53,318 nt of DNA from Acidobacteria bacterium RIFCSPLOWO2_02_FULL_67_21 (lineage in GTDB: Bacteria > Acidobacteriota > Vicinamibacteria > Vicinamibacterales > UBA2999): the NCBI GenBank assembly GCA_001767195.1, contig MEKU01000056.1:49289-102606 (forward strand). The letters are read 5' to 3'. The notes under the pieces are model-generated. The model did not search any database and had not been told where the DNA came from. It was given only the letters and a program-made list of their open reading frames with translations. Position 1 is the stretch's first letter. The number at the start of each line of letters is the position of its first letter. Shown in pieces: positions 3,099 through 48,620 of the stretch. Both the position numbers and the translations under genes were made by a program.

Positions 3099-4206
3099 CC
3101 TGATACCGGCGATCGTCCTTCTCTGCGCGGTGCTGCCGCTCGCGGCGGCCGCGCAGACCATCGAGCTTGCGAAGGTGGAGGCCCACAGGATGGAGCGGAC
3201 CATCCAGCTTCCGGGCGAGTTCTATCCCTACCAGCGCGTGTCGCTGTTCGCGCGCGTGCCCTCGTTCGTGCGGGACGTGCACGTCGATCGCGGCAGCGTC
3301 GTGAAGCGCGGAGACCTCCTGGTCACGCTGACCGCGCCGGAGCTGGCGGCGCAGGTCGCCGAGACCGAGGCGCGCGCGCAGGCGGTGCTGCTGCAGCTGG
3401 CGGAGGCCGACGCCAAACTGATCAGTGCGAAGACGACCGCCGAGATGCTGAAGCAGGCGTCGGCCACCCCCGGGGCCGTCTCGATGAGCGAAGTGATCCT
3501 CTCCGAGCAGGCCTATCAGGCGGCGCAGTCGGTGAGAAACGCGGTGGAGAACTCCGCGAAGGCGGCGCGCGCGGCCGCGGAGGCGGTCAAGGAGCTCTCC
3601 GGCTACCTGCAGGTGCGGGCGCCGTTCGACGGCTTCATCACCGAGCGGCTCGTGCATCCCGGCGCGCTCGTCGGGCCGTCCACGGCCGGCACGGCCACGG
3701 CTCTCGTCCAGATCGAGCAGAACGCCCGGATGCGCCTCGTGGTCGCCGTGCCCGAGGCGAACGTTTCAGGCATCACCCGTGGAGCCGCCGTCACGTTCAC
3801 CGTCCCCGCGTATCCCGGTGAAACGTTTACAGCCACGATCGCCCGCCCGGCGCAGGCGCTCGAGGCACGGACACGATCGATGCTGGTGGAGCTCGACACC
3901 TCGAACAGCCAGGGCAAGCTGGCGACCGGGATGTTCGCCGACGTGGCGTGGCCGGTGCGCCGTCCGGCGACATCGCTCGTCGTGCCGACGACGTCGGTGA
4001 TTACGACAACCGAACGGACCTTTGTGATTCGGAATCGGGACGGCCGCGCCGAATGGGTCAACGTCAGGCGTGGCGCCCGGATGGGCGACATGGTGGAGGT
4101 CTTCGGTCCGCTGCGCGAAGGCGACATGGTCGTCCGGCGCGGCAACGACGAGATCCGCGAGGGCTCGCCGCTGACCAGCGCGCCGGCGGCGCGGACCGGC
4201 GGCTAG
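3085..4206 (+). CDS. Efflux RND transporter periplasmic adaptor subunit (MFP/HlyD-like)
   Basis: I trimmed the track ORF 3013..4206 to the ATG at 3085 (MKLHSLIPAIVLLCAVLPLAAAAQ signal peptide). It has a coiled-coil hairpin region (AELAAQVAETEARAQAVLLQLAEADAKL) and then a beta-barrel segment VRAPFDGFITERLVHPGALV typical of MFPs. It overlaps the RND stop by 14 nt. Confidence 0.85.
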   Translation: MKLHSLIPAIVLLCAVLPLAAAAQTIELAKVEAHRMERTIQLPGEFYPYQRVSLFARVPSFVRDVHVDRGSVVKRGDLLVTLTAPELAAQVAETEARAQAVLLQLAEADAKLISAKTTAEMLKQASATPGAVSMSEVILSEQAYQAAQSVRNAVENSAKAARAAAEAVKELSGYLQVRAPFDGFITERLVHPGALVGPSTAGTATALVQIEQNARMRLVVAVPEANVSGITRGAAVTFTVPAYPGETFTATIARPAQALEARTRSMLVELDTSNSQGKLATGMFADVAWPVRRPATSLVVPTTSVITTTERTFVIRNRDGRAEWVNVRRGARMGDMVEVFGPLREGDMVVRRGNDEIREGSPLTSAPAARTGG

Positions 4207-5661: not shown

Positions 5662-7485
5662 CTACGGCTCGACCGGCTTGAGCGGGATGTAGGCGCCCTG
5701 CGGCGGCAGGCCTTCCATCTGAACCGAGTGCCCCTTGACCGGCGGCAGATCCTGGAACAGGAAGTCCCACTTCCACCGCTCGGACGGGTTGGAGGCCTGC
5801 AGCCAGTTGCGCGCGGGGATCGGCCTGGTGAACACGAGCCGGTCGGCCTCCGCATATCCGGTTCCCGGCATCGCACCGGCGATGGCCTGCCGCACGTCCG
5901 AGGCCGTCTCATACGGGAGCGCGACGCCGAGCGACCTTCCAAGATTGACCAGAATCCTCCAGTCCTCGAGCGCCTCGCCCGGGGGGGCGATCGCCCGTGA
6001 CGCCGCCTGAACGCGGCCCTGATCGTTTGTGTAGATCGCGTCTTTCTCGACGTACGCCGCGCCCGGGAGCACCAGATCGGCCGCCCCGGCGAGATCCGTC
6101 ATCAACACGCCCTGAACCACGAGCAGGGGAAGCGCGCCGCTGCGCCGGGCCGAGGCAATCCATGCGACGTCGCCCAGCGACCCGTCCGGGCCCGGATCGA
6201 TCACGTACAGCGCCTTCACGCGGCCTGCGTCGACGGCCTGCCGCAGCTCACGAAGATCAGGGGTCCCGTCGTTGCCCGTGCCGACGTCGTAGCCGAGATC
6301 GCGGGCGCCGTTGACGTTGGGAGCATCGGTGACGGGTACCGTGAACGTTGTCTGCTCGGGCTGCGGCTTCTCGCTGCGCGTCCACGCGACCGTGACCGAC
6401 TTCAATCCGTCGCTGCCGATGAGGGCTTCGGTCACCTGCTTCAGGACGAACAGTTCTTCCGTGGCGGCATGCGCGGAGACGAGAAACCGGACCGGGCCGG
6501 CGGCGGCGGCGTCCTGGAGCCGGTTCCGCAGCCGCGGCTGCAGGTCCTGCCACGCGACCGGCTCCAGCGCAGCCGCCTGCCCCGAGCGTGTCGAGGGGCT
6601 TCGAAGCAGCGGCCGCCGCAGGCGGCGGTCACTCTCGGTCCAGTGATAGTTGAACCGGCCGATGTCGCACATCCAGTACCCGTTGACCTCGGGGTTGAAG
6701 CGCGGCGTCATCCGGATCAGCCGGGACCCGCGGGCCCACTCCGGCTTGCCCTTGAGCCACGCGCTCGTATTGCACCCTTTCGAGCACAGCGTGCAGACCG
6801 TGTCGACGACACCCGGGTTGTCCCAGGGGCGGCTCTTGAAGCGGTAGTCCTTGGTGAGAATGGCGCCGACGGGACACACGTCCATCAGATTGCCGGACAT
6901 CAGCGAGTGAACGCCCTGCTCCTGGAAGGTCGCGATCTCGCTGCCGTATCCGCGATCGACGATCCCGATCTGCGCGTCGCCATCGATTTCCTTCATGAAC
7001 CGCACGCACCGCGTGCACAGGATGCAGCGGTTGCGGTTCAGCATCAGCGTCGGCCCGAAATCGACGTCCGCCCGAACGCCCTCGCCGTCGAAGACGCGCC
7101 GGGGGAAGTCCATCCGGCTCTCGGCGGGGCCGAAGGTGTACGAGAAGTCCTGAAGCGGGCACTCGCCCCCCTTGTCGCAGACGGGGCAGTCGAGCGGGTG
7201 GTTGATCAGCAGGAACTCGAACACGCCGGCGCGCGCGTCCACGACGTCGGGATCGCGGGTCAACACGACCATGCCGTCGGTGCAGACCGTCGAGCAGGAC
7301 GTCTGGAGCTTCGGCATCTTCTCGATCTTCACCACGCACACTCGGCAGGACCCATCGATGCTGATGCCGGGGTGATAGCAGTAGTACGGGACGGAGATGC
7401 CGGCCTCGATCGCCGCTTGCAGAACCGTCTTGCCTTTCGCGACCGTCACCGGACGCCCATCGATGGTCAGCGTCACCGTGTCCAT
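5662..7485 (-). CDS. nuoG: NADH-quinone oxidoreductase subunit G-like Fe-S protein (short form)
   Basis: N-terminal 2Fe-2S ferredoxin fold (CYHPGISIDGSCRVC). HPLDCPVCDKGGEC matches the N5-type HxxxCxxCxxxxxC motif. CILCTRCVRF plus CPVGA match a 4Fe-4S site. CTLCSKGC…WMCD matches the N7-type CxxCxxxC…C motif. At 607 aa it is shorter than E. coli NuoG. Confidence 0.85.
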   Translation of the reverse strand: MDTVTLTIDGRPVTVAKGKTVLQAAIEAGISVPYYCYHPGISIDGSCRVCVVKIEKMPKLQTSCSTVCTDGMVVLTRDPDVVDARAGVFEFLLINHPLDCPVCDKGGECPLQDFSYTFGPAESRMDFPRRVFDGEGVRADVDFGPTLMLNRNRCILCTRCVRFMKEIDGDAQIGIVDRGYGSEIATFQEQGVHSLMSGNLMDVCPVGAILTKDYRFKSRPWDNPGVVDTVCTLCSKGCNTSAWLKGKPEWARGSRLIRMTPRFNPEVNGYWMCDIGRFNYHWTESDRRLRRPLLRSPSTRSGQAAALEPVAWQDLQPRLRNRLQDAAAAGPVRFLVSAHAATEELFVLKQVTEALIGSDGLKSVTVAWTRSEKPQPEQTTFTVPVTDAPNVNGARDLGYDVGTGNDGTPDLRELRQAVDAGRVKALYVIDPGPDGSLGDVAWIASARRSGALPLLVVQGVLMTDLAGAADLVLPGAAYVEKDAIYTNDQGRVQAASRAIAPPGEALEDWRILVNLGRSLGVALPYETASDVRQAIAGAMPGTGYAEADRLVFTRPIPARNWLQASNPSERWKWDFLFQDLPPVKGHSVQMEGLPPQGAYIPLKPVEP

Positions 7486-7504: not shown

Positions 7505-7582
7505 CCGGTAGCTGGTAGCTGGTAGCTGGTAGCCTGCGGTCCGTGCTTTCGTTGGGCTACTGGCTACCACCTACCAGCTAGG
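7505..7582. repeat. Periodic-unit hairpin, GGTAGCT flavour
   Basis: (GGTAGCT)x4 at 7505-7534, a 20-nt loop, then ggctactggctaccacctaccagctagg at 7555-7582. It lies between the divergent nuoG-like and hypothetical gene starts. Confidence 0.8.
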
Positions 7583-8084: not shown

Positions 8085-8171
8085 GGGAACTCCCAACTTC
8101 CAACTCCCCAACTCCCAACAAAACGGCAGCTCTTTGGGATTTGGGCCTTGGGAGTTGGGCCTTGGGAGTTG
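8085..8171. repeat. Periodic-unit hairpin, CTCCCAA flavour
   Basis: gggaactcccaacttccaactccccaactcccaac, a 14-nt loop, then ttgggatttgggccttgggagttgggccttgggagttg. It spans exactly from one convergent stop codon to the other. Confidence 0.85.
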
Positions 8172-15600: not shown

Positions 15601-15667
15601 ACAACTTCCAACCCCCAAGACGCCAACTCCCAAATTGGGAGTTGTGAAGTTGGGCGTTGGAAGTTGT
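15601..15667. repeat. Periodic-unit hairpin, CTTCCAA/CTCCCAA flavour
   Basis: acaacttccaacccccaagacgccaactcccaa-a-ttgggagttgtgaagttgggcgttggaagttgt. The arm ends are perfectly complementary. It lies downstream of the aminotransferase stop at 15667. Confidence 0.85.
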
Positions 15668-18076: not shown

Positions 18077-18763
18077 ATGCGGAACAGTTGGTTGCCAGCA
18101 GTAATCATCGCGCTCGCCGTGGCGGTCGTCCCCGCCTGCGCCACCAAAGGCTTCGTCCGTGAGGAAGTCGGCGGGGTCAACACGAAGGTGGACACGCTCG
18201 GCGGCACCGTCGAGCAGACTCAGCAGCGGCTCGGTACGGCGGAAGGCCGCATCGGCAGCGTGGATCAGAAGGCCGAAGCCGCCGGCAAGGCGGCTTCTGA
18301 CGCGCGCGCCGCCGCGACGACGGCGCAGGGCGCCGCCGACAAGGCGCAGGCAGCCGCCGGCGCAGTCGGCGGCCGCGTGGATGCCGTCGAGGCCGCATCG
18401 CGCCGGCTGATCTATGAGGTGACGATCAGCGAGGACCAGGGGAACTTCAAGTTCGGCGCCGCCGAGCTGCCCGACGAGGCGCGCGCGGCCCTCGATCAGC
18501 TGGTCAGCAAGCTGAAGGCGGAGCCGGCGACCATCTACCTGGAAATCGAGGGGCACACCGATAACGTCGGACCCACCGAGATGAACGAGCGGCTCGGGCT
18601 CGAGCGCGCCGAAGCGGTCAAGCGGTATCTGTACGAGCAGCACCAGATCCCGCTGCACAAGATGAACGTGATCAGCTTCGGCGAGGACAAGCCGGTCTCG
18701 CCGAACAACACCCGTGACGGACGCGCGCAGAATCGGCGCGTCGTCGTAAAGGTCCTCTCCTAG
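18077..18763 (+). CDS. OmpA-family lipoprotein with Ala-rich coiled-coil N-terminal region
   Basis: AAGGAG lies upstream and there is a lipobox-like VVPAC. The C-terminal OmpA-like domain reads IEGHTDNVGP…NERLGLERAEAV…NRRVVVKV. Confidence 0.85.
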   Translation: MRNSWLPAVIIALAVAVVPACATKGFVREEVGGVNTKVDTLGGTVEQTQQRLGTAEGRIGSVDQKAEAAGKAASDARAAATTAQGAADKAQAAAGAVGGRVDAVEAASRRLIYEVTISEDQGNFKFGAAELPDEARAALDQLVSKLKAEPATIYLEIEGHTDNVGPTEMNERLGLERAEAVKRYLYEQHQIPLHKMNVISFGEDKPVSPNNTRDGRAQNRRVVVKVLS

Positions 18764-18844
18764 AGAGGACCTCAACTCCCAACTCCCAATACCCAATTCC
18801 CAAGTCCTTGGGAGTTGGAAGTTGGGAGTTGGGAGTTGGGAGTT
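18750..18844. repeat. Stop-codon-centred 10-bp hairpin followed by a CTCCCAA-flavour periodic hairpin
   Basis: aggtcctctc-cta-gagaggacct (18750-18772) encloses the OmpA stop. Then ctcaactcccaactcccaatacccaattcccaag / ttgggagttggaagttgggagttgggagttgggagtt follows. It fills a convergent spacer. Confidence 0.85.
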
Positions 18845-19490
18845 ATCGTAGTCTCGCCAAGTCCAGCAGGACCCTTCCCAGTTCTTTCCCCGACTCTTCA
18901 ATCACGACCTCATAGCGGCCGCGGGTGTCGAGCCGCGCGCTGTCGAACGCGGCGAGGACGATGCCGCCGGTGAGGGGCTGACCGGCGGGCGGTAATTGCA
19001 GCGGGATCGGGTACGGTGTCGGAAACGGCCCGCTGGCGAGCCGTGGACCGAAGCGAGGAATCCGCTGCACGGCAGACGGCGCCGCCGGCGGCTCCGACAC
19101 GCCGGCGCGCGCCAGAGTGATCGCGTACGCCGGCACGCCGACGTACGTATTGAGCGGGTGAAACGTCAGCTCCAGGAACAGTTCGAGCCGGCCGCCATGC
19201 TCCGCCAGCGCGGCAATCGCCTCGACCTGGCGCATCCGCGCCAGGCCCAGACGCGCACGTTCCTCGGCGGCGAGCTCGAGCCTCCGGAACGGCGTGACCA
19301 GGTCGAGGGAGTCGACAGGCGGCCGGTTGACTTCGACCCGATACGGCGCATGAAAGCGCGCGCGCACCGACTCGATCGGCGACTGGCCGATCGCGATCGC
19401 CTCGTCGATGGCCTGCGGATTCAGAGCGGGATCGTACGCAGCTGCAGCGGAAACAACAAAGGCGGCAAGAATGGCGCCCCGCACCGGCAT
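18843..19490 (-). CDS. Hypothetical secreted protein
   Basis: 215 aa with a signal peptide (MPVRGAILAAFVVSAAAA). The composition is coding-like and I recognise no family. Confidence 0.6.
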   Translation of the reverse strand: MPVRGAILAAFVVSAAAAYDPALNPQAIDEAIAIGQSPIESVRARFHAPYRVEVNRPPVDSLDLVTPFRRLELAAEERARLGLARMRQVEAIAALAEHGGRLELFLELTFHPLNTYVGVPAYAITLARAGVSEPPAAPSAVQRIPRFGPRLASGPFPTPYPIPLQLPPAGQPLTGGIVLAAFDSARLDTRGRYEVVIEESGKELGRVLLDLARLR

Positions 19491-19525
19491 GGTATGGATC
19501 GTAGCAAAGCCAGCGCCCCAATACG

Positions 19526-19589
19526 GGCCACAGAGGCACAGAGTTACAGAGAAAGCTTCATTCCTCTGTGTCTCGGTGTCTCTGTGGCT
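19526..19589. repeat. Periodic-unit hairpin, CACAGAG flavour
   Basis: ggccacagaggcacagagttacagagaa, a loop, then ttcctctgtgtctcggtgtctctgtggc. It lies downstream of the CHRD gene stop. Confidence 0.85.
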
Positions 19590-19595
19590 CGTATC

Positions 19596-22791: not shown

Positions 22792-22807
22792 GGCATTTCA
22801 CATTCAC

Positions 22808-22876
22808 GAGCCACAGAGACACAGAGCCACAGAGGTCTTGAGCCAGTTTTTATCTGTGTCTCTGTGGCTCTGTGGC
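22808..22876. repeat. Periodic-unit hairpin, CACAGAG flavour
   Basis: gagccacagagacacagagccacagagg, an 18-nt loop, then ctgtgtctctgtggctctgtggc. It lies in the convergent cupin/MetF-like spacer. Confidence 0.85.
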
Positions 22877-22881
22877 CCGTT

Positions 22882-26000: not shown

Positions 26001-26010
26001 AAAACACAGG

Positions 26011-26048
26011 ATATCAGGCCCCAGGGCTCAGACCCCAGGGCGCAGACC
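26011..26048. repeat. Left arm of a split periodic hairpin (CAGGGCT flavour)
   Basis: atat-caggccc-cagggct-cagaccc-cagggcg-cagacc, starting 11 nt outside the DPP4-like start codon. Its partner is at 28797-28814. Confidence 0.55.
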
Positions 26049-26168
26049 TCCGTGCCGCTGTCCATGGAGCCGGACTTGTCGGCGAGGCACGATGCCGACC
26101 GGCCTATTTTTGCGCGCCTTCCAGCCAGATCCGGCGCAAGTAGCGTGCACACTGCACGTTGATGGCAA

Positions 26169-26197
26169 TTGAATCGGCTCAGGCGTCGGAATAGACT
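26169..26197 (+). promoter_or_regulatory. Candidate sigma70-like promoter upstream of the methyltransferase
   Basis: TTGAAT (26169-26174), a 17-nt spacer, then TAGACT (26192-26197), 86 nt upstream of the ATG at 26284. This is pattern match only, and acidobacterial promoters may differ. Confidence 0.3.
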
Positions 26198-26283
26198 GCG
26201 ACCGCCTGCAGGCGCATTGGATTATCGAGTTCGGTCGACTGCTGGTTGGGCGTCATGAAGCAGTATCGCTTGCGGAGGAAGGG

Positions 26284-27288
26284 ATGAAAGAACCAGCATC
26301 GCGAGCACCACGAAACAGGACGCTGGCAATCTCTGAGCATGATGCCGAACGCCTGCGTAGGCGACTGCTTGTCGTCGATCAGCCCTTGGCTCTATCGGAG
26401 TGCGCTGGGCGAACCATCCTCGGCGACTCCTTGTTGGTCCTGCCCCTATTGCCCAAGCAATCTGTGGATTTGCTGATCGTTGACCCGCCATACAATCTAA
26501 CCAAGGCCTTCAGCGGCTCTACATTCAAGAAACAGCCCCTCGCGGCATACGAAGAGTGGCTCCATTCCTGGCTCGCGCTGGCAGTCGGACTCTTGAAGCC
26601 TTCCGCCTCAGTGTACGTGTGCAGCGAATGGCGATCCTCGGGAGTCGTCCAACGTGCTCTTGAACGGTACTTTCTTGTTCAGAACCGGATCACGTGGGAA
26701 CGCGAGAAGGGTCGTGGTGCTTTACGAAACTGGAAGAACTGCTCCGAGGACATTTGGTTTTGTGTTCTTAGCGACCAATACTTCTTTGACGTAGAGGCCG
26801 TGAAGCAGAAGCGCCGTGTGATTGCGCCCTATCGTGACGCAGACGGAAAGCCGAAGGACTGGAACGAGGAAGCCAACGGCGGTTTCCGACTGACCCACCC
26901 TTCAAATCTCTGGACTGATATCTCGGTTCCCTTCTGGTCGATGCCAGAAAACACGGAGCACCCGACTCAGAAACCAGAGAAATTGTTCGCCAAGCTGGTG
27001 CTCGCTAGCTCCAAACCCGGAGACTGCGTGCTCGATCCCTTCTTGGGTTCCGGCACCACGTCAGTCGTAGCAAAGAAACTCGGGCGACAATTCATCGGGA
27101 TTGAGCAAGAGGAGATCTACTGCCTGTGTGCTGAGAAGCGATTGGAGTTAGCTCATAACGAGCCGTCGATTCAGGGCTACTCCGGTGGCTACTTCTGGGA
27201 GCGCAATTCCCTCGCGTTCCAGGACACGAACAACACAACGCCGAGTTCCAACGCAACCGGTCAGTCTTTCCTGTTCGAGGACAACTGA
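26284..27288 (+). CDS. Beta-class DNA methyltransferase (N6-adenine or N4-cytosine) of a type II R-M system
   Basis: Motif IV (LLIVDPPYNL) lies N-terminal to motif I (VLDPFLGSGTT). That IV-before-I order defines the beta class. GGAGGAAGGG lies immediately upstream of the ATG. GC is about 52 % versus about 70 % in the flanks. Confidence 0.9.
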   Translation: MKEPASRAPRNRTLAISEHDAERLRRRLLVVDQPLALSECAGRTILGDSLLVLPLLPKQSVDLLIVDPPYNLTKAFSGSTFKKQPLAAYEEWLHSWLALAVGLLKPSASVYVCSEWRSSGVVQRALERYFLVQNRITWEREKGRGALRNWKNCSEDIWFCVLSDQYFFDVEAVKQKRRVIAPYRDADGKPKDWNEEANGGFRLTHPSNLWTDISVPFWSMPENTEHPTQKPEKLFAKLVLASSKPGDCVLDPFLGSGTTSVVAKKLGRQFIGIEQEEIYCLCAEKRLELAHNEPSIQGYSGGYFWERNSLAFQDTNNTTPSSNATGQSFLFEDN

Positions 27289-27950
27289 TGAGGAGCCGGC
27301 TCTTTCATAGCAATGACTACGTGTTGGTCCAGGACCGCGTGAGGGACTTGATCAATGGCAGTCCAGATTTCCTATCGAAGAACACCGCCCAGAGCCCGAG
27401 GGCTGCGGGGGATGCCATCGAGAACGTGGTCGCGGCATCCTTCGAGAACATTCTTGGCGAGCACTGTGGCGAGTACTCCTCGAACTTCGCCCGCCGGGCA
27501 ATGGCTGACCTCGCGTTTAAGGATCGCGACGGTCTGTACTACATCGTCGATGTCAAGACGCACAGGACCGACACGAAGTTCAACATGCCGAACCTTACCT
27601 CTGTAGAACGGCTGGCGCGTTTCTACGAGGACGACAGCAATGTCTTCACGGTTCTCCTCGTCAGCTACAGCGTCGAGGGTGTGAAGGCACAGGTCACCCA
27701 TGTCACATTCGTGCCCATCGAGTTCCTCGGATGGGATTGCCTAACGATTGGGGCGCTCGGTTGGGGCCAGATTCAGATAGCCAACTCGAATCGAGTGACC
27801 GTGAATCCTGGGTACGCGCGGAAGCGTTGGATGCTGGAGTTCTGCGATGTGATGTTGGAGTTCTACCCGAAAGAAATCGCTAAGATCGGCGATCGCGTAT
27901 CTCGCTTCCAGCAGGTCCGTGAGTTCTGGTCGAAACACTCCGACGACTGA
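27288..27950 (+). CDS. Putative type II restriction endonuclease (PD-(D/E)xK-like)
   Basis: The ATG overlaps the methyltransferase stop (TGATG). It is 220 aa and has the same low GC. The candidate catalytic signature is MAD…(14 aa)…DVK within ADLAFKDRDGLYYIVDVKTH. The family is not recognised, so the call rests on context plus this motif. Confidence 0.6.
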   Translation: MRSRLFHSNDYVLVQDRVRDLINGSPDFLSKNTAQSPRAAGDAIENVVAASFENILGEHCGEYSSNFARRAMADLAFKDRDGLYYIVDVKTHRTDTKFNMPNLTSVERLARFYEDDSNVFTVLLVSYSVEGVKAQVTHVTFVPIEFLGWDCLTIGALGWGQIQIANSNRVTVNPGYARKRWMLEFCDVMLEFYPKEIAKIGDRVSRFQQVREFWSKHSDD

Positions 27951-28026
27951 CGCCCAACACGGCATGCAGCCGACGGCGCGAGTGATTCAGCGCGCCGCGG
28001 CTGATGCCTGCCGTTGAGGGTTCGCG

Positions 28027-28233
28027 ATGAAGCTGGGGGAACTGCTCGAGATGGTTCAGGACATGGATCGCCAGAATCCTGGTGAACGGGCGCTCCGGTT
28101 TCAGACTTGCCTCGATTCCGGGGCGCACAGGCTTCAGGAACTCCGCCGCGTCTCTGGCAGGCAGCAGACCTACTGCCTGGATTGCCTGACGTGGTTTGTC
28201 GATGGCACGGCTCAGAACCCTCCGAGACGCTGA
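28027..28233 (+). CDS. Hypothetical small protein (68 aa), uncertain
   Basis: ATG with GAGGG 6 nt upstream. The N-terminus looks helical (KLGELLEMVQDMD) and there is one CxxC (CLDC). Antisense ORFs of similar length exist, so coding status is unresolved. Confidence 0.3.
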   Translation: MKLGELLEMVQDMDRQNPGERALRFQTCLDSGAHRLQELRRVSGRQQTYCLDCLTWFVDGTAQNPPRR

Positions 28234-28437
28234 TGCACTGTGCCGGTCGGGCAAAAAACGGAACGATGAATCGGAATGGCCGATACCGACTCATGATCTG
28301 CCTAACACCGCATGCACCAGACGGCAGTAGCGCATTTTAGGGGCGCCGCTGGTGAGGCGTTGCCGTTGCCACACCAAAGCCACGATTCGAGCACGGCGGA
28401 CGCATACTCGAAATGTCTCATTTGCGAGAGGTAAGGC

Positions 28438-28794
28438 ATGGAGGCCCAGATTCCCGGCGTCCACTCGGATCCAGACATTCTCGGCGGAACGCCTGTGTTC
28501 GTCGGAACGCGCGTGCCTGTCAAGGCGTTGCTCGACTACCTGGAACACGGCCGACCGCTAGCCGGTCAGCAGACGAAGTATTCCGCGAGGCTCGGGCTCG
28601 GATCTAGCCTGTGCGCGTCACGTTCAACGAGTTGGCCGAGCGCGAACTCAAGGACGCGGCGCAGTACTACGAGCGTGAACAATCCGGGCTTGGCACCGCA
28701 TTCATCGCGGAAGTACGGCGATGTGCCGGGGATGGTGCCGCGGGCGAGCGCCAATCCGTTGGGCCGACGCGACGTCCCCAGGAACAATCGGTGA
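28438..28794 (+). pseudogene. DUF433-like antitoxin-type gene, probably frameshifted
   Basis: The first ~40 aa (DPDILGGTPVFVGTRVPVKALLDYLEHG) match the DUF433 signature. After about aa 45 the translation turns to low-complexity sequence and runs through the neighbouring ParE-like ORF. Confidence 0.5.
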
Positions 28795-28811
28795 GCGGCC
28801 CTGAGCCCTGA
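28611..28811 (+). pseudogene. RelE/ParE-family toxin remnant (frameshifted and 3'-truncated)
   Basis: After the GTG start, RVTFNELAERELKDAAQYYEREQSGLGTAFIAEVRRC matches the N-terminal half of ParE-like toxins of about 100 aa. The expected continuation (…ANPL…RDV.R) appears in another frame (28438 frame: ASANPLGRRDVPR). The ORF then ends inside the hairpin arm at 28797-28814. Confidence 0.55.
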
Positions 28812-28814
28812 TAT
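28797..28814. repeat. Right arm of a split periodic hairpin (CAGGGCT flavour)
   Basis: ggccctg-agccctg-atat. Its reverse complement atat-cagggct-cagggcc matches the left arm (atatcagg plus gctcag) if one 7-nt unit is skipped. It ends 9 nt before the MBL gene ATG. Confidence 0.55.
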
Positions 28815-28823
28815 TGTCACCAG

Positions 28824-38538: not shown

Positions 38539-38627
38539 ACCACGACGACACGAAGATCTCGAAGAACACGAAGTCATTATGAAAACGGGTCTTCGTGGCC
38601 TTGGTGATCGTCGTGATCTTCGTGGTT
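38539..38627. repeat. Periodic-unit hairpin, CACGAAG flavour, between DUF1015 and serA
   Basis: aaccacgacgacacgaagatctcgaagaacacgaag, a 17-nt loop, then cttcgtggccttggtgatcgtcgtgatcttcgtggtt. The 3' arm ends 4 nt before the serA ATG. Confidence 0.85.
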
Positions 38628-39865: not shown

Positions 39866-40945
39866 ATGCGCATCTATAATTTTTCCGCCGGTCCCGCGGT
39901 GCTGCCGCTGCCGGTCCTCGAAGAGGCGCAGCGCGATCTCGTGGCGCTGCCCGGGGTCGGCATGTCGGTGATGGAGATCAGCCATCGATCTGCCGCGTTC
40001 GAGAATCTGCTGAACCAGGCGATCGAAGACATCCGGGCGCTGGCGAACATTCCGTCCAGCTACCGGATCCTGATGTTGCAGGGGGGCGCCACGCTGCAGT
40101 TCTCGATGGTGCCGATGAACCTGCTGATGGCGGGCGCCACGGCCGACTACATCGACACCGGCTCGTGGGCCGACAAGGCGATCAAGGAAGCCCGGAAGGT
40201 CGGCTCCGTGAACGTGGCGGCGACCACCAAGGGCGACAAGTACAGCCGGCTTCCCGCGCAGCAGGAGCTGACGCTCACGCCGGGCGCCGCCTACGTGCAC
40301 GTCACGACCAACAACACGATCGAAGGGACCGAGTGGAAGGCGATTCCCGATGTCGGATCGGCGCCGCTCGTGGCCGACACGTCCTCCGACATGTTCAGCG
40401 GCCCGATCGATGTCGCCCGGTTTGGCCTGATCTACGCCGGCGCGCAGAAGAATCTCGGGCCGTCGGGCGTCACGCTCGTGATCATCCGCGAGGATCTCCT
40501 CGCCCGGTCGACCGACGGGCTGCCGATCATGCTGAACTACAAGGTCCACGCCGACAACAACTCGCTCTACAACACCCCGAACACGTTCGGCGTCTACATT
40601 CTCGGGCTCACGATGAAGTGGCTCCGCTCCCTCGGCGGGCTGGACGCGATTGGGGCACGCAACGAGCGCAAGGCGGCGAAGCTGTACGCCGAGATCGACC
40701 GGACCGGCTTCTACCGCGGAACGGCACAGAAGAAGAGCCGGTCGCGGATGAACGTGACGTTCCGCCTGCCGACCGAAGAGCACGAGAAGGCCTTCGTGAA
40801 GGAGTCGACGGCCGCGGGGCTCGACGGCCTGAAAGGGCACCGGTCGGTCGGCGGCATGCGCGCGTCGATCTACAACGCGTTTCCGGAAGACGGTGTCGAG
40901 GCGCTCGTCCAGTTCATGCGCGAGTTCGAGCGCAAGCACGGGTAG
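39866..40945 (+). CDS. serC: 3-phosphoserine/phosphohydroxythreonine aminotransferase
   Basis: 359 aa with MRIYNFSAGPAVLP at the N-terminus and the AGAQKNLGPSGV block containing the PLP lysine. It starts 4 nt after the serA stop. Confidence 0.92.
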   Translation: MRIYNFSAGPAVLPLPVLEEAQRDLVALPGVGMSVMEISHRSAAFENLLNQAIEDIRALANIPSSYRILMLQGGATLQFSMVPMNLLMAGATADYIDTGSWADKAIKEARKVGSVNVAATTKGDKYSRLPAQQELTLTPGAAYVHVTTNNTIEGTEWKAIPDVGSAPLVADTSSDMFSGPIDVARFGLIYAGAQKNLGPSGVTLVIIREDLLARSTDGLPIMLNYKVHADNNSLYNTPNTFGVYILGLTMKWLRSLGGLDAIGARNERKAAKLYAEIDRTGFYRGTAQKKSRSRMNVTFRLPTEEHEKAFVKESTAAGLDGLKGHRSVGGMRASIYNAFPEDGVEALVQFMREFERKHG

Positions 40946-40946
40946 G

Positions 40947-40972
40947 CACGGAGGGGACGGAGGCACGGCAAC
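40947..40972. repeat. Left arm of a split periodic hairpin (CACGGAG flavour)
   Basis: cacggag-gggacggag-gcacggcaac begins 2 nt after the serC stop. 40949-40965 (cggaggggacggaggca) is the perfect reverse complement of 42744-42760. Confidence 0.75.
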
Positions 40973-41043
40973 TATGTCGTGGCGTTTACACTTCCTGACG
41001 CGCGGCCCAATACTCGCTGCCGATCAGCTTTCGCCGCTGATCC

Positions 41044-41265
41044 TTAGCACTCGAGTCGGTGGTCCGGCTCCCAGAACTCGCACCCAGCGCATTCTTCCTC
41101 GGTCACGTGGGGTGGAGCGCATTCCACCGTAAGGCGTGTGCGACGCGGCCGCACACACACCCACGGGCCGCCCGGCTGTTCGGGGATGTCAACGAACTGG
41201 GAAGCCAGCCGAGTCCACTGGCAGTTCCAGGGGAACTGCACGCCTTTCTTTGCGACTTCTGGCAT
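41044..41265 (-). CDS. Hypothetical small Cys-rich protein (73 aa)
   Basis: ATG with AAGG 7 nt upstream. It has six Cys including CAGC (CxxC) and a C-terminal Cys. A 7-bp hairpin (GATCAGC…GCTGATC, 41022-41042) follows the stop. It lies in the low-GC island and I recognise no family. Confidence 0.4.
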   Translation of the reverse strand: MPEVAKKGVQFPWNCQWTRLASQFVDIPEQPGGPWVCVRPRRTRLTVECAPPHVTEEECAGCEFWEPDHRLEC

Positions 41266-41794
41266 TTGAAGCCTTAGAGTTGCGGCGCAGCAAGTGCCGT
41301 GCCCTTAACGGCTCCGCGAGTTCTATAAGCATTTGCAGGTGTCGGGACACGGGCCTGCAGGATCTTGATCAGTCGTGCCGTGAAATGTCCGATCCCATGC
41401 TGGAAATCCCACGGGTTGTATCTCGCAGAACATGATCGGTCGGAGCAGCCCGTGTCGGAGCGGATCTTTGGAACGCTGGTTGCGCCGCGATGGCCGCGTT
41501 CTCCGTTTCTGTCAGATTCCTTCGGTAAATCCTTGGCGACAAAATGATGCGCTAGTAAACACTGGGCTTTCCGCGTAACTCACATTCAGCTCGCGAATAG
41601 CGTTTCCGGATTCGGTCGTTGGCTTGCGTCTGTTCGCGTCAGGCTGCTGCGTGCGCCCGGGTTACTTGCAGCGGGTCAGTGCGAGTATTCGACCATCCTT
41701 GCCATCGTCTGGCGCCTGAAGTTCATCGAACATCGGTGCGCTCGCGGGCGCTCGGCGGCGTGGCGCTCGATTCGACTGAGCGGCCGGCAAGATA

Positions 41795-41832
41795 GGTAAC
41801 AGATCAGTCCGGCCCCGGACCGTTCTGTTACC
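41795..41832. repeat. 38-nt nested imperfect palindrome
   Basis: The sequence is GGTAACAGA-tca-GTCCGG-cc-CCGGAC-cgt-TCTGTTACC. It has a 9-bp outer stem plus a 6-bp inner stem and sits in the non-coding stretch upstream of 41965..42468. Confidence 0.7.
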
Positions 41833-41964
41833 CTTCTCTCCGGACCGCACCTATCGACCGGCTAACCGAATGGAGCCGACGCGCCAGGAGTTTCCTGCGA
41901 TCATGTCGCCGCGGCGCGCGGCTCATTCGGAACGTCTAGGCCCGCATTGAGGAACAGCAAGGCA

Positions 41965-42468
41965 ATGAAAGTCAATCAGTCAAACAATTCTGACCCAGGC
42001 TTCGGAAGTACAACATGGCGAGCAACGGGTCTCGTTGTACTAGCGGTCTTGCTAGGCAATGTCAACGCGCTGGTCGACTCTGTTCTCCACCCGGAGATTT
42101 CGTACTTCGATCGGGAGCATCTCATCGTGGGAGGCGTTACGGCCCTCGCCAGCGCAGTGCTCTCCTTTCTATTGATTCGCTACGAGCGTCACCTGAACAG
42201 AGCAATAGACACTATCGATCATCTTGAAGCGATTCTACCGATTTGCTCCAACTGCAAGAAGATTAGAAGGAGCGACGAAGGGCTAAATGTTGCGGAGTCC
42301 TGGCAGTCAATAGAGTCGTATTTCACTGAGAAGACGCGCTCGGAGTTTAGCCATGGTATTTGCCCAGAATGCATGGTGGCCCTCTATCCAGATTCCGTGC
42401 CGAGCCCGACAGCGAAGGACGCCGACATACGTGGTCACGCGCCGACCGCACGCCGCAATGAGGCCTAA
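41965..42468 (+). CDS. Membrane-anchored protein with C-terminal four-cysteine CxxCKKIR…FSHGICPEC module
   Basis: I prefer the ATG at 41965 (AAGG upstream) over the TTG at 41947. It has two TM helices (GLVVLAVLLGNVNALV and VGGVTALASAVLSFLLI). The C-terminal ILPICSNCKKIRRSDEG…WQSIESYFTEKTRSEFSHGICPECMVALYP matches a recurrent uncharacterised Cys4 module. Confidence 0.75.
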   Translation: MKVNQSNNSDPGFGSTTWRATGLVVLAVLLGNVNALVDSVLHPEISYFDREHLIVGGVTALASAVLSFLLIRYERHLNRAIDTIDHLEAILPICSNCKKIRRSDEGLNVAESWQSIESYFTEKTRSEFSHGICPECMVALYPDSVPSPTAKDADIRGHAPTARRNEA

Positions 42469-42704
42469 CACGTTTGCAGCCGTCGGCGACTGGCGCGACA
42501 ATGAGCCGTCGCGGTCGTATCCGCACTCCCAATCATCGGCGGAATCGCATTGACACTGGCGCGGCGCCAGCCAGGCGCCGGTCACTCCGCGGCGTGGAGG
42601 GGACCTCGCTCAGACCACATGTCGGAGCGCCTCGAGCCTCCAGAGGTAGTTGGCGATCTGATTCCAACTGGCGAACGTCAGGTCCTGACAGTTTTCTCTC
42701 CATT

Positions 42705-42760
42705 CACCCTCCGTTCCTCCGTGTCTTCTCCGGGTACGACCGTTGCCTCCGTCCCCTCCG
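42705..42760. repeat. Right arm of a split periodic hairpin (CACGGAG flavour)
   Basis: caccctccgt-tcctccgtg-tcttctccg…ttgcctccgtcccctccg ends 1 nt before the pcnB stop codon. The last 17 nt are perfectly complementary to 40949-40965. Confidence 0.75.
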
Positions 42761-44065
42761 CTAACTCTGCGTCGCGGCGCGTGGCCGCCGCCTGCGCCTT
42801 CGCCGCCGCCGCGGCGGCCCGGGTTCGGTCGCCTCCGCGTCGCCCTCGAACGCTCCTGCCGCTTCGATGAACCCGCGCCAGTGCTCGAGCGCCTCGGGCG
42901 CGCTGCCGTGAATCTCCAGCCAGGTGAGGGCCTCCCGGAACGGCCCTCGATGCATCAGCGCGCGCCGTGCACGGGGCGACGCGTCCTGGTCGAGCAGCCG
43001 CCGCTGGAGCGAGAGAACGTGCTGCAGGCGATCGACGTCGCGGCGCGGAAGCGGCAGCATGCCGAGCGAGAGCGCCGGCTCCTTCCCCCTGCCGGTGCGC
43101 ACCGCCGGCGCCGGCGCGAGCAGCCCGCCGATCCCCAGCCCCAGCGGAACGATGAGCGAGCCGAGCAGAATCGGGTTCGTGAGGGTGTCCGGCGTCTCCT
43201 CGAACCGGGCGAGATAGCGGTCGAGCGCCGCCAGCGACTGCCACAGCGCATCGCCGCAGCGGGTCTGGAACTGCGGCGCGATCGGCTCGAGCAGCCGGCG
43301 CTCGGCCAGCATCCGGAACGCCTTCTCGGAGGCGCCCGCCCGCAGCAGTTTGTAGAGCTCCTCGAGCAGCCGCGCCGGCGCGCTTTTCGCGATCTCGGTG
43401 CGATGCGCGGCAATGGCGGCGTCGATCGGCGGATCGATGGCGAAATCGAGCCGCGCCGCCATCGCGACCGCCCGCAGCATGCGAACCGGATCCTCCTGGA
43501 ACCGCTCGGTCGGGTCTCCGATGCACCGGATCAGGCGCGTGCGGAGGTCCTCGAGCCCCCCGGTGTAGTCGATGATGGAAAACGTGGCGATGTCATAGAA
43601 GAGCGCGTTGACGGTGAAATCCCGCCGGAACGCATCCTCTTCGGGCGTGCCGAACGTGTTGTCCCGGTGCAGCAGCCGCACGTGGCCGTCTGTGCCCTCC
43701 TCGTCAACCGGAATGGCGTGCGCCAGCTGGGCGTCGACGGCGGCGAGCTCTTCGGCGGACAGCTGGCGCCTGAACGTCGCCACCTCAATCGCCTTGGGTC
43801 CAAACCGCACGTGCGCCAGACGGAACCGGCGCCCGATGATCCAGCAGTTGCGGAACAGCCGCTTCACCTGATACGGATGCGCGGACGTGCCGATGTCGAA
43901 ATCCTTGGGCCGGTGGCCGAGCAGCAGATCGCGGACGCTGCCGCCGACGAGGTAGGCGAGGAAGTGGTGCTGATGCAGCCGATACAGAACTCGCAGGGCG
44001 TCGGGATCAATCTGCTTGCGTGAAACCGAGTGCGCGTCGCGCGGCACGATGACCGGCTGGCTCAT
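42761..44065 (-). CDS. pcnB: Poly(A) polymerase I / tRNA nucleotidyltransferase-family protein
   Basis: 434 aa with LVGGSVRDLLLG…PKDFDI (the nucleotidyltransferase GG-x-VRD and DxD). FRNCWIIGRRFRLAHV is typical of PcnB. It has an Arg-rich C-terminal tail (PRRRRRRRRRPR). Confidence 0.85.
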   Translation of the reverse strand: MSQPVIVPRDAHSVSRKQIDPDALRVLYRLHQHHFLAYLVGGSVRDLLLGHRPKDFDIGTSAHPYQVKRLFRNCWIIGRRFRLAHVRFGPKAIEVATFRRQLSAEELAAVDAQLAHAIPVDEEGTDGHVRLLHRDNTFGTPEEDAFRRDFTVNALFYDIATFSIIDYTGGLEDLRTRLIRCIGDPTERFQEDPVRMLRAVAMAARLDFAIDPPIDAAIAAHRTEIAKSAPARLLEELYKLLRAGASEKAFRMLAERRLLEPIAPQFQTRCGDALWQSLAALDRYLARFEETPDTLTNPILLGSLIVPLGLGIGGLLAPAPAVRTGRGKEPALSLGMLPLPRRDVDRLQHVLSLQRRLLDQDASPRARRALMHRGPFREALTWLEIHGSAPEALEHWRGFIEAAGAFEGDAEATEPGPPRRRRRRRRRPRAATQS

Positions 44066-44938: not shown

Positions 44939-44971
44939 GGAGAGACACAAGGCGCTAAAGAACGTTTCCAC

Positions 44972-45042
44972 GAGCCACAGAGCCACAGAGGCACAGAGCT
45001 TTTTGAGTGAATTCCTTCTCTGTGTCTCTGTGACTCTGTGGC
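44972..45042. repeat. Periodic-unit hairpin, CACAGAG flavour
   Basis: gagccacagagccacagaggcacagag, a 19-nt loop, then ctctgtgtctctgtgactctgtggc. It lies in the convergent TPR-like/polA spacer. Confidence 0.85.
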
Positions 45043-45063
45043 CCCGTGAAAGTGAAGGCGGTT

Positions 45064-47825: not shown

Positions 47826-48563
47826 TTGATGGCATCCGGACGGCGGCGGATCGCAGGCGTCGCAGGGCTCGTGACGGCTGCCGTGCTCGCCTCCGGGTGC
47901 AGCCGTGCGGCGCTGCTCGAGCCCGAGTACGAGTACGAAGAGGAGGTCTACCTCTCGCTCGACGGCTCGGCGCGGGTGAACGTCCATGCGTCGGTTGCCG
48001 CGCTCGTGGCGCTCCGCGGCGCAATTCTAGATCCCGATCCGCTGGCGCGCCTCGATCGCGACTACGTGCGCCGGTTCTTCGGCGCGCCGGCCAACCGCGT
48101 CTCCGTCAGCCTGGCACGACGCGACGGCCGCCGCCTCATTCACGCGGGCATTCAGGTCGACGACCTGCGGCAGGTGTCGAAGCTGGCGCCGTTCGCCTGG
48201 TCGGAGTACCGGCTCGAGCGGCGCAGCGACACGTTCGAGTACCGCCAGTCAGTCGGCGCGCCGGCCGCCCCCGGCCGCCGGCTGCCGCCCTGGACCGGAC
48301 AGGAGCTCGTCGCGTTCCGGTTCCATCTGCCGAGCGAAGTGACGTTCCACAACGCGCCGTCGGGCGAGATCGAGCGTGGCAACATCCTGCGGTGGGCGCA
48401 GCCGCTCGGCGAGCGGCTCGACGGGCGCCCGGTGGACATTCAGATGCAGTTCGAGGCCACGTCCATTCTCGCCAACACCCTGCTCCTCTTCGGCGCCACG
48501 ATGGTGGCCGCGCTGGCCGCGATGGCGGGGGTGGTGTGGTGGATCAGACGGAGCGGGACATAA
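47826..48563 (+). CDS. Hypothetical lipoprotein with C-terminal TM helix
   Basis: It has a lipobox (VLASGC) and a C-terminal hydrophobic helix (LLLFGATMVAALAAMAGVVWW). It is divergent from polA. Confidence 0.65.
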   Translation: MMASGRRRIAGVAGLVTAAVLASGCSRAALLEPEYEYEEEVYLSLDGSARVNVHASVAALVALRGAILDPDPLARLDRDYVRRFFGAPANRVSVSLARRDGRRLIHAGIQVDDLRQVSKLAPFAWSEYRLERRSDTFEYRQSVGAPAAPGRRLPPWTGQELVAFRFHLPSEVTFHNAPSGEIERGNILRWAQPLGERLDGRPVDIQMQFEATSILANTLLLFGATMVAALAAMAGVVWWIRRSGT

Positions 48564-48620
48564 AATCCCAAATCCCAAAGACCGCACTTGTTGGGATTTG
48601 GTCATTGGGATTTGGGATTT
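48563..48620. repeat. Periodic-unit hairpin, ATCCCAA flavour
   Basis: aaatcccaaatcccaaag, a 10-nt loop, then ttgggatttggtcattgggatttgggattt. It lies in the convergent lipoprotein/BON spacer. Confidence 0.85.

Follow-up and report, generated by a model that had tools for sequence, protein, structure and literature searches.

Gene cassettes are also found away from integrons, as clusters of attC sites lacking an integron integrase (CALIN) or as single attC sites lacking one (SALIN) (Cury et al., 2016, PMC4889954; Loot et al., bioRxiv 10.1101/2022.09.11.507474); off-site cassette insertion has precedent (bioRxiv 10.1101/2022.09.11.507474), and chromosomal attC sites of Acidobacteria are already known (PMC8352920). 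The present analysis concerns island B, a stretch of comparatively low-GC DNA between the convergent genes serC and pcnB in Acidobacteria bacterium RIFCSPLOWO2_02_FULL_67_21, which is placed in the Vicinamibacterales, Acidobacteriota; the DNA analysed, hereafter the window, is a single stretch of 53,318 nt. Island B is probably a small cluster of integron gene cassettes that lacks an integrase and is decaying, CALIN- or SALIN-like and seated in the apex of the serC/pcnB hairpin. In common with CALIN and SALIN it is small, has attC-bounded cassettes outside an integron platform, has no intI nearby, and carries cargo without known function; it differs in holding one full and one truncated attC, in occupying the apex of a resident palindrome, and in belonging to a metagenome-assembled genome (MAG) of the Vicinamibacterales. 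The element type itself is known, and the new aspects are the host lineage and the palindrome-apex location; the repeated association of cassettes with such hairpins may be new as well.

Insertion at attG, or secondary, sites, with a GWT core in a double-stranded target, is a known route to isolated off-integron cassettes. Its clean product leaves a complete attC at the right junction, whereas island B is without one; attG sites are reported to be unlike structured att sites, and a role of hairpins is not described for them. Intergenic stem-loops serve as landing sites for group IIC introns (at terminators and attC sites), IS1111-attC elements and REP-associated transposases, but these elements bring an enzyme of their own and go into, or next to, defined positions, whereas island B lies at an apex and has no mobility gene. 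The intervening sequences of 23S rRNA, which bear a PF05635 open reading frame (ORF) at the tip of an extended helix, likewise place a small gene in the apex of a long stem; they sit in rRNA genes, however, and are removed at the RNA level, and the content of island B appears to be cassettes, not PF05635. REP and BIME palindromes are also short, intergenic, located at gene ends and present in many copies per genome, but the hairpins discussed here have three to five tandem units of 7-9 nt that vary by site, with no REP family or RAYT identified and no Rfam match.

A resident hairpin split between serC and pcnB

The stop codons of serC (39866-40945, plus strand; PF00266) and pcnB (42761-44065, minus strand; PF01743, PF12627 and PF12626 in Pfam) are bordered by the following features.

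40947-40970, plus strand: left arm of the resident heptamer-repeat hairpin (CACGGAG GGGACGGAG GCACGG), an orphan with no local partner
42705-42740, plus strand: additional CTCCG(T) units on the inner side of the right arm, without a left-hand counterpart
42741-42760, plus strand: outer right arm of the resident hairpin (CCGTTGCCTCCGTCCCCTCCG), abutting the pcnB stop and pairing with the left arm

An initial annotation of this DNA had reported perfect inverted arms of 17 nt next to both stops and 1778 nt apart, and these coordinates are confirmed. The reverse complement of 42744-42760 is found exactly at 40949-40965 (CGGAGGGGACGGAGGCA), and the two enclose 1778 nt; the left arm begins 2 nt past the serC stop, and the right arm touches the pcnB stop. 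With one extra T allowed, pairing reaches 20 of 21 positions (40949-40968 against 42741-42760). The concern that such a pair might arise by chance is answered only in part: the 17-mer has no further copy in the window, but same-family hairpins that are complete and separate (19576-19592 and 22806-22822) also share 17 nt inverted, and the match is therefore not decisive alone. What identifies the arms as one split hairpin is rather that both are orphans, lacking any local partner, and that they refold when joined, 40943-40970 plus 42741-42763 giving a 51-nt hairpin with a free energy (dG) of -25 kcal/mol (z -8.3). The two arms of 17-21 nt are thus two halves of one resident hairpin.

Insertion at the apex of this hairpin fits best, because a complete three-unit hairpin like those of relatives is already formed by the left arm (24 nt) and the outer right arm (21 nt). 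The extra CTCCG units on the right, from which entry within the left arm or loop, or loss of part of the arm, had been proposed, are indeed present at 42705-42740 and without a partner on the left, but entry into a longer left arm is neither needed nor supported: taken without the left arm, the right side (42585-42763) folds short of significance (z -0.55), and the inner units contribute nothing further. A target-duplication model based on the similar 14-mers at 40945-40958 and 42591-42604 was also rejected, as pairing between the left copy and the right arm runs 10 nt past the putative duplication.

Comparison with relatives bears out the expectation that serC and pcnB adjoin a hairpin elsewhere. 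The two genes are convergent neighbours in 112 Vicinamibacterales relatives, 70 of which have a spacer of at most 150 nt between them; a strong fold was found in 28 of the 35 serC/pcnB spacers measuring 35-250 nt, and many of the relatives' spacers consist of a single heptamer-repeat hairpin of the same class. The predicted empty site, with a single CACGGAG hairpin, is seen in relative L104, whose spacer is an intact 85-nt CACGGAG/CACAGAG hairpin, the sole one of CACGGAG type among the 70 short spacers. Island-B DNA occurs in the serC/pcnB spacer of none of the 112 relatives. In metagenome and genome scans the closest relative has 84-86% serC identity, and the exact pre-insertion sequence was not recovered.

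The composition of the island is equally atypical. At 59.4% GC, against 68.3% in the rest of the window, it falls about 6 standard deviations below background windows of the same size (mean 68.4, standard deviation 1.5, minimum 64.3). The description of a low-GC island accordingly stands, though the 47-48% originally counted for stretches of it is true only of parts of one gene, that for the Cys4 membrane protein described below, and 100-nt stretches inside this gene are the sole ones to reach 49-50%. Because its GC content is so far below background, and because it is absent from the spacers of relatives, the enclosed DNA is foreign and not conserved in the lineage, as had been anticipated.

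attC sites, cassette and cargo of island B

The features on which the cassette identity of island B depends lie in its central and right-hand parts.

41784-41843, plus strand: 60-nt hairpin (GGTAACAGA..TCTGTTACC), DNA fold dG -22.2, z -5.4
41860-41941, plus strand: full-length attC, with R'' GGCTAAC, imperfect bulged stems, R' GTcTAGGC, and crossover between G (41934) and T (41935)
41935-42514, plus strand: Cys4 gene cassette, with a coding sequence of 167 amino acids at 41965-42468
42463-42514, plus strand: truncated attC of the Cys4 cassette, with R'' GCCTAAC, L'' and loop, and its L'/R' end missing

We assign this DNA to integron cassettes because of matches to a covariance model of attC sites, an array that holds a homologue of the Cys4 gene, a second copy of the cassette bounded at the R' box, and the sequencing depth of the attC pool. 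The model (R1) was built solely from 11 attC sites of locus L092, and was run unfiltered on both strands of the whole window. Its best two matches, 27952-28021 (23.9 bits, E value 6e-4) and 41860-41941 (18.6 bits, E value 0.016), are both on the plus strand, one in each low-GC island (the former in island A, considered below), and the latter aligns over the full length of the model and folds with bulged bases in its 5' arm. In 808 kb of relatives, from which L093 was set aside because its cassette array is that of the L092 training set, the best match scored 17.7 bits and none reached 18. Locus L092 itself comprises 11 small ORFs on the same strand with canonical GCCTAAC...GTTAGGC attC sites between them, and the homologue P0003 (72%) is one of its cassettes. 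The cassette of the Cys4 homologue at L092 ends in a 19-nt palindrome (1826-1844, GCCTAACAAGGCGTTAGGC) made up of R'' and R' boxes only, with no L boxes.

Locus L011, from another metagenome, contains a 97.8% identical copy of 41933-42514 alone, behind a different attC and a different gene. The homology runs from the R' box (CGTCTAGGC, 41933) to 42514, and both copies have the extra C (GTcTAGGC); the TCTAGGC at the start of the window's cassette is complementary to its own R'' GCCTA-AC. At the other end of the cassette, R'' GCCTAAC (42463-42469; consensus RYYYAAC) overlaps the TAA stop codon and is followed by an L''-like TTTGCAGCCG, as in L092 and island A, such that 42463-42514 resembles the 5' half of the attC sites of L092, L011 and island A; the L011 copy of this attC aligns to positions 13-78 of the attC model. 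Within the window, GCCTAACAC occurs only here and in island A, against 0.13 occurrences expected. No complete L'/R' (GTTRRRY) was found after the Cys4 gene, the window departing from L011 past 42514; as the L'/R' end of its attC is missing, the cassette is truncated and presumably no longer mobilisable.

In eight metagenome runs (aquifer or soil), the attC core at 41865-41935 has 11-58x the depth of its flanks, and its other copies continue with the canonical CGTTAGGC/CGTTAGAC before diverging after R'; such depth reads as the signature of a large cassette pool. The hairpin at 41784-41843, with 3-6x the depth of its flanks in metagenome contigs, belongs to the same pool, since an exact copy of its 5'-most 18 nt (41784-41801) lies within another cassette array, at L011 1237-1254; the hairpin may represent a terminator or a second site resembling attC. 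At the end of its Cys4 gene, L011 carries 26 nt (1231-1256) that the window lacks; this insertion contains the 18-nt copy up to GGTAAC and looks like a recombination scar between two hairpins of the cassette pool. In another acidobacterial MAG, upstream of pcnB, L050 4405-4560 comprises an orphan arm of CACAGAT units, followed by a stretch of the same attC family, with 55 nt at 85% identity to the attC core of island B, and by a 124-amino-acid gene; R1 is silent on this attC-like stretch under default filters.

The Cys4 membrane protein belongs to a family with at least 432 matches, of about 150 amino acids, in which two hydrophobic helices precede an invariant CxxC...CxxC; its motif is LPICxxCKKIR...SWQ.IE.Y...FSHGICPxC (homologues P0001-P0120). 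Some members are integron cassettes and others single chromosomal genes (L094, L095), and one source mislabels a member as CadD. The rest of the island comprises the following.

40971-41043, no strand assigned: left junction and spacer, with a 7-bp hairpin GATCAGC..GCTGATC at 41022-41043 and a GTT at 40984-40986
41044-41265, minus strand: ORF73, an intact, small, Cys-rich Cys4 protein of 73 amino acids, from a conserved family without annotated function
41266-41783, no strand assigned: spacer between divergent genes, apparently non-coding or degraded, 55-62% GC, with short ORFs lacking family matches
42515-42704, no strand assigned: right-hand spacer, with a GC-rich palindrome at 42562-42580 and a stem with a T-run at 42677-42699

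ORF73 has 19 homologues at E values below 1e-3 in a representative library (best 64% identity, E value 7e-23), and its family has the invariant residues C15, C37, C59, C62, W17, W35 and W65; the 7-bp hairpin sits just 3' of it. Searches of Pfam, NCBIfam, PADLOC and PDB sequences gave no match for either the Cys4 membrane protein or ORF73. Homology to the fetched loci was not found for 40971-41043, nor by tblastx for 41266-41783. On the right, 42591-42604 (GGCGTGGAGGGGAC) is a 12/14 copy of the start of the left arm (40945-40958) and the island's sole direct repeat, and the stem with the T-run is terminator-like. An Rfam scan of the island gave no match, and a tRNA scan of the window found none. 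The membrane Cys4 protein and the small Cys-rich ORF are therefore both intact, as first described, and represent conserved families; the accompanying view of a largely non-coding or degraded island is supported in that part of it is degraded.

No integron integrase (PF00589) was found among the called genes within 6 kb on either side (glnS, rmuC, M23 peptidase, DUF1015, serA, serC, pcnB, a hypothetical gene and polA), in keeping with the earlier report that the island has no recombinase. An integrative genomic island is not indicated, as there is no recombinase in the island and no tRNA in the window; nor is a transposon or miniature inverted-repeat transposable element (MITE), recognisable by terminal inverted repeats and target-site duplication, as no direct repeat flanks the arms or the insert. 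CALIN require at least two attC sites within 4 kb, of which the island has one in full and one truncated, plus a hairpin that resembles an attC; under a strict attC count it is a SALIN. That the DNA was foreign and lay inside an otherwise compact hairpin had been recognised from the outset, while the integron-cassette identity of both islands had been missed.

Several observations weigh against our interpretation. There is a single full-length attC, and its E value of 0.016 comes from a roughly calibrated model, not the curated one of IntegronFinder. The ratio of attC to genome depth varies between runs (11-58x), so that much of the attC pool lies in other organisms; several hosts of this attC family are likely. 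ORF73 is on the opposite strand, about 700 nt of the island are unassigned, and the interpretation accounts neither for the CTCCG units (42705-42740) nor for the 14-mer resembling the left arm (42591-42604). A simple attC x genome-site insertion would leave an attC against the right arm, where none is present, and neither junction can be confidently read as G|WT. The integrase check covered 6 kb on each side. Finally, three other split hairpins described below (L039, L071 and L096) hold genes without attC (no R1 match).

Possible routes of arrival and other split hairpins

The source of the island-B cassettes may be a chromosomal integron pool, one abundant in the host's own aquifer community. 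The cassettes could have arrived by integron-integrase recombination at a non-canonical genomic site (a secondary site or attG), or by illegitimate capture at a break, and later deletions would have shortened the last attC at its 3' end and obscured the two junctions; such decay is suggested by the truncated attC, the 700 unassigned nt and the blurred junctions themselves. GTT triplets are present at 40984-40986 and at the inner edges of the arms (42742-42744 on the top strand, and the complement of 40970-40972); those at the arm edges are compatible with the integrase route, and prove nothing. The hairpin was probably hit, at least partly, as the sole dispensable DNA between serC and pcnB. 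Once split it is probably a weaker terminator, and the cargo, a two-helix membrane protein with C-terminal CxxC...CxxC and the 73-amino-acid Cys4 protein, may be read through from the flanking genes.

Hairpins of the same compact intergenic class recur throughout the window, with arms of three to five tandem units of 7-9 nt and a unit sequence specific to each site (CAACTCC, CACAGAG, TAGCTGG, CACGAAG and AAATCCC among them).

Compact hairpins of the window: 7509-7580, 8088-8156, 15601-15667, 18763-18855, 19521-19594
Compact hairpins of the window, continued: 22806-22880, 38549-38624, 44965-45051, 48563-48620

Orthologous spacers in relatives carry hairpins with different unit sequences, and neither an Rfam family nor a literature description was found for the class. 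A scan for split hairpins covered 1.25 Mb, using exact seeds and requiring at least 14 nt on both sides, with a consequent bias towards central splits. A periodicity-based arm detector was too noisy and missed the arms of island B, and a scan of low-GC segments for flanking inverted repeats was confounded, the compact hairpins being AT-richer themselves and the island bounds misjudged. Six split hairpins that enclose genes were found in the 1.25 Mb, namely island B and those listed here.

Island A, window 26001-28823, no strand assigned: 58.5% GC, between divergent genes, with 15/17 inverted arms at 26011-26027 and 28798-28814 (CCCAGGG/CTCAGG type)
Island A, 26284-27288: type II adenine methyltransferase
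Island A, 27288-27950: ORF of 220 amino acids adjoining the methyltransferase, a candidate restriction partner
Island A, 27952-28021, plus strand: attC directly following the 220-amino-acid ORF, the best R1 match of the window (E value 6e-4)
Island A, 28300-28363: weaker attC-like site, starting with GCCTAACAC
Island A, 28438-28600: DUF433 fragment
L039, 6330-6973 of the serC/pcnB spacer (CAWBMG010000007.1), co-directional with pcnB: GNAT acetyltransferase of 180 amino acids, exactly between four-unit CACGAAG arms
L071, 3546-4116: intact PF05635 gene between orphan arms
L096, 580-1300: PF05635 gene with an in-frame stop, between orphan arms
L028, 3623-4123: degraded PF05635 gene between orphan arms

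Judged by its attC content, island A also appears to consist of integron cassettes. The GNAT gene of L039 has no attC and no room for a promoter. In L071, L096 and L028 the enclosed DNA has a GC fraction of 0.60, against 0.68-0.69 in the flanks, and all three assessable PF05635 genes in the 1.25 Mb (23S rRNA intervening-sequence protein, bAvd-like) lie inside split hairpins. The placement of genes in hairpins need not, then, be specific to integrons, given that the cargo of L039, L071 and L096 is without attC. In L027, whose orthologous spacer in L028 holds the split hairpin, orphan arms of GGGATCA units (3443-3475 and 7078-7100) are inverted, lie 3.6 kb apart and enclose genes of normal GC; these may reflect an inversion between two hairpins.

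These cases bear on the earlier suggestion that hairpins are targeted for insertion. Recurrence is real, with five further split hairpins that hold genes and, at L050, an orphan arm beside the island-B attC family, but targeting is not established, because hairpins fill the spacers, such that any tolerated insertion must split them, and because the scan favours central splits; that the hairpins are true insertion targets is accordingly no better than a tentative proposal. A mechanism of this kind would dispense with the integrase: the palindrome would extrude and be cut at its apex, for example by an SbcCD-type nuclease, and end joining would trap passing DNA, making the hairpins hot spots. 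Six split hairpins in 1.25 Mb, with central or near-central inserts whose cargo is unrelated (cassettes, GNAT, PF05635), are consistent with such capture, as are the location of all three assessable PF05635 genes and the lack of attC in L039, L071 and L096; at island B itself, junctions without attC and a truncated last attC are what a captured fragment of a cassette array would show. We nevertheless consider this account possible rather than probable, as the null model predicts the same splits in spacer-filling hairpins, the exact-seed scan is biased to central ones, and no footprint of breakage or repair is identifiable. The broader proposition is similarly speculative: promoterless gene modules of various kinds may settle preferentially at the apex of Vicinamibacterales heptamer-repeat palindromes, which would make these palindromes landing pads. 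Those modules would include, with the same diffidence, the cassettes of islands A and B and possibly L050, the PF05635 four-helix-bundle genes of L071, L096 and L028, and the GNAT gene of L039.

It is a good deal less probable that the arms of island B stem from two hairpins of the same family that once flanked the island genes and each later lost its inner arm. Neighbouring spacers do often share at least 17 nt inverted (the pair 19576-19592/22806-22822 in the window; L023; L062), and in L083 a gene between serC and pcnB has a complete, differing hairpin on each side. Two independent and precise half-deletions would be required, however, and the orphan-arm pattern is repeated in L028, L039, L071 and L096, where the arms are flush against a single gene; moreover, genes of such content are found at this site in no relative, and the joined arms yield a hairpin of the size typical of the site. 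More improbable again is that the arms are the terminal inverted repeats of a cargo-bearing mobile element, of which the compact hairpins would be internally deleted, MITE-like copies. Inverted arms do flank cargo, and repeated independent arrivals could explain why orthologous spacers of relatives have quite different units; but island B shows no target-site duplication, there is no transposase in or near it, arm sequences that differ in every case offer no common transposase-binding site, the L011 copy is bordered by attC sites and not by these arms, and the arms are resident, since relatives have hairpins at the empty site.

The locus is not an assembly artefact, despite short-read contig breaks at its internal repeat. 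A 2301-nt stretch is 100% identical in ten independent assemblies from different studies and assemblers, and each island junction is covered by separate contigs; no contig skipping the island was seen among the Logan contigs of the eight metagenome runs, in which rare variants would be invisible, and none of the RNA runs examined holds an island gene. A chimera of two halves joined through the high-copy attC repeat is barely credible: Logan contigs do break exactly there (41767/41812-41900), but the identical 2301 nt come from all ten assemblies, and the two halves are tied to serC (left) and pcnB (right), which are neighbours in 112 relatives.

Implications for gene gain in Vicinamibacterales

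Read as integron cassettes stranded off-integron, island B gains an identity, in an uncultured Vicinamibacterales lineage from an aquifer, and aquifer metagenomes prove to hold a very abundant pool of the same attC family. The locus would provide a natural case of the off-platform spread of cassettes, so far shown mainly in laboratory Escherichia coli, and it marks two widespread, unannotated Cys4 protein families as mobile cargo. It further frames a testable question, namely whether palindromes in GC-rich genomes are favoured entry points for genes, or only places where insertions survive. If true, the landing-pad proposition would connect structured intergenic repeats with gene gain in a way not described before, and could bear on the PF05635 ORFs found at helix tips of 23S rRNA intervening sequences.

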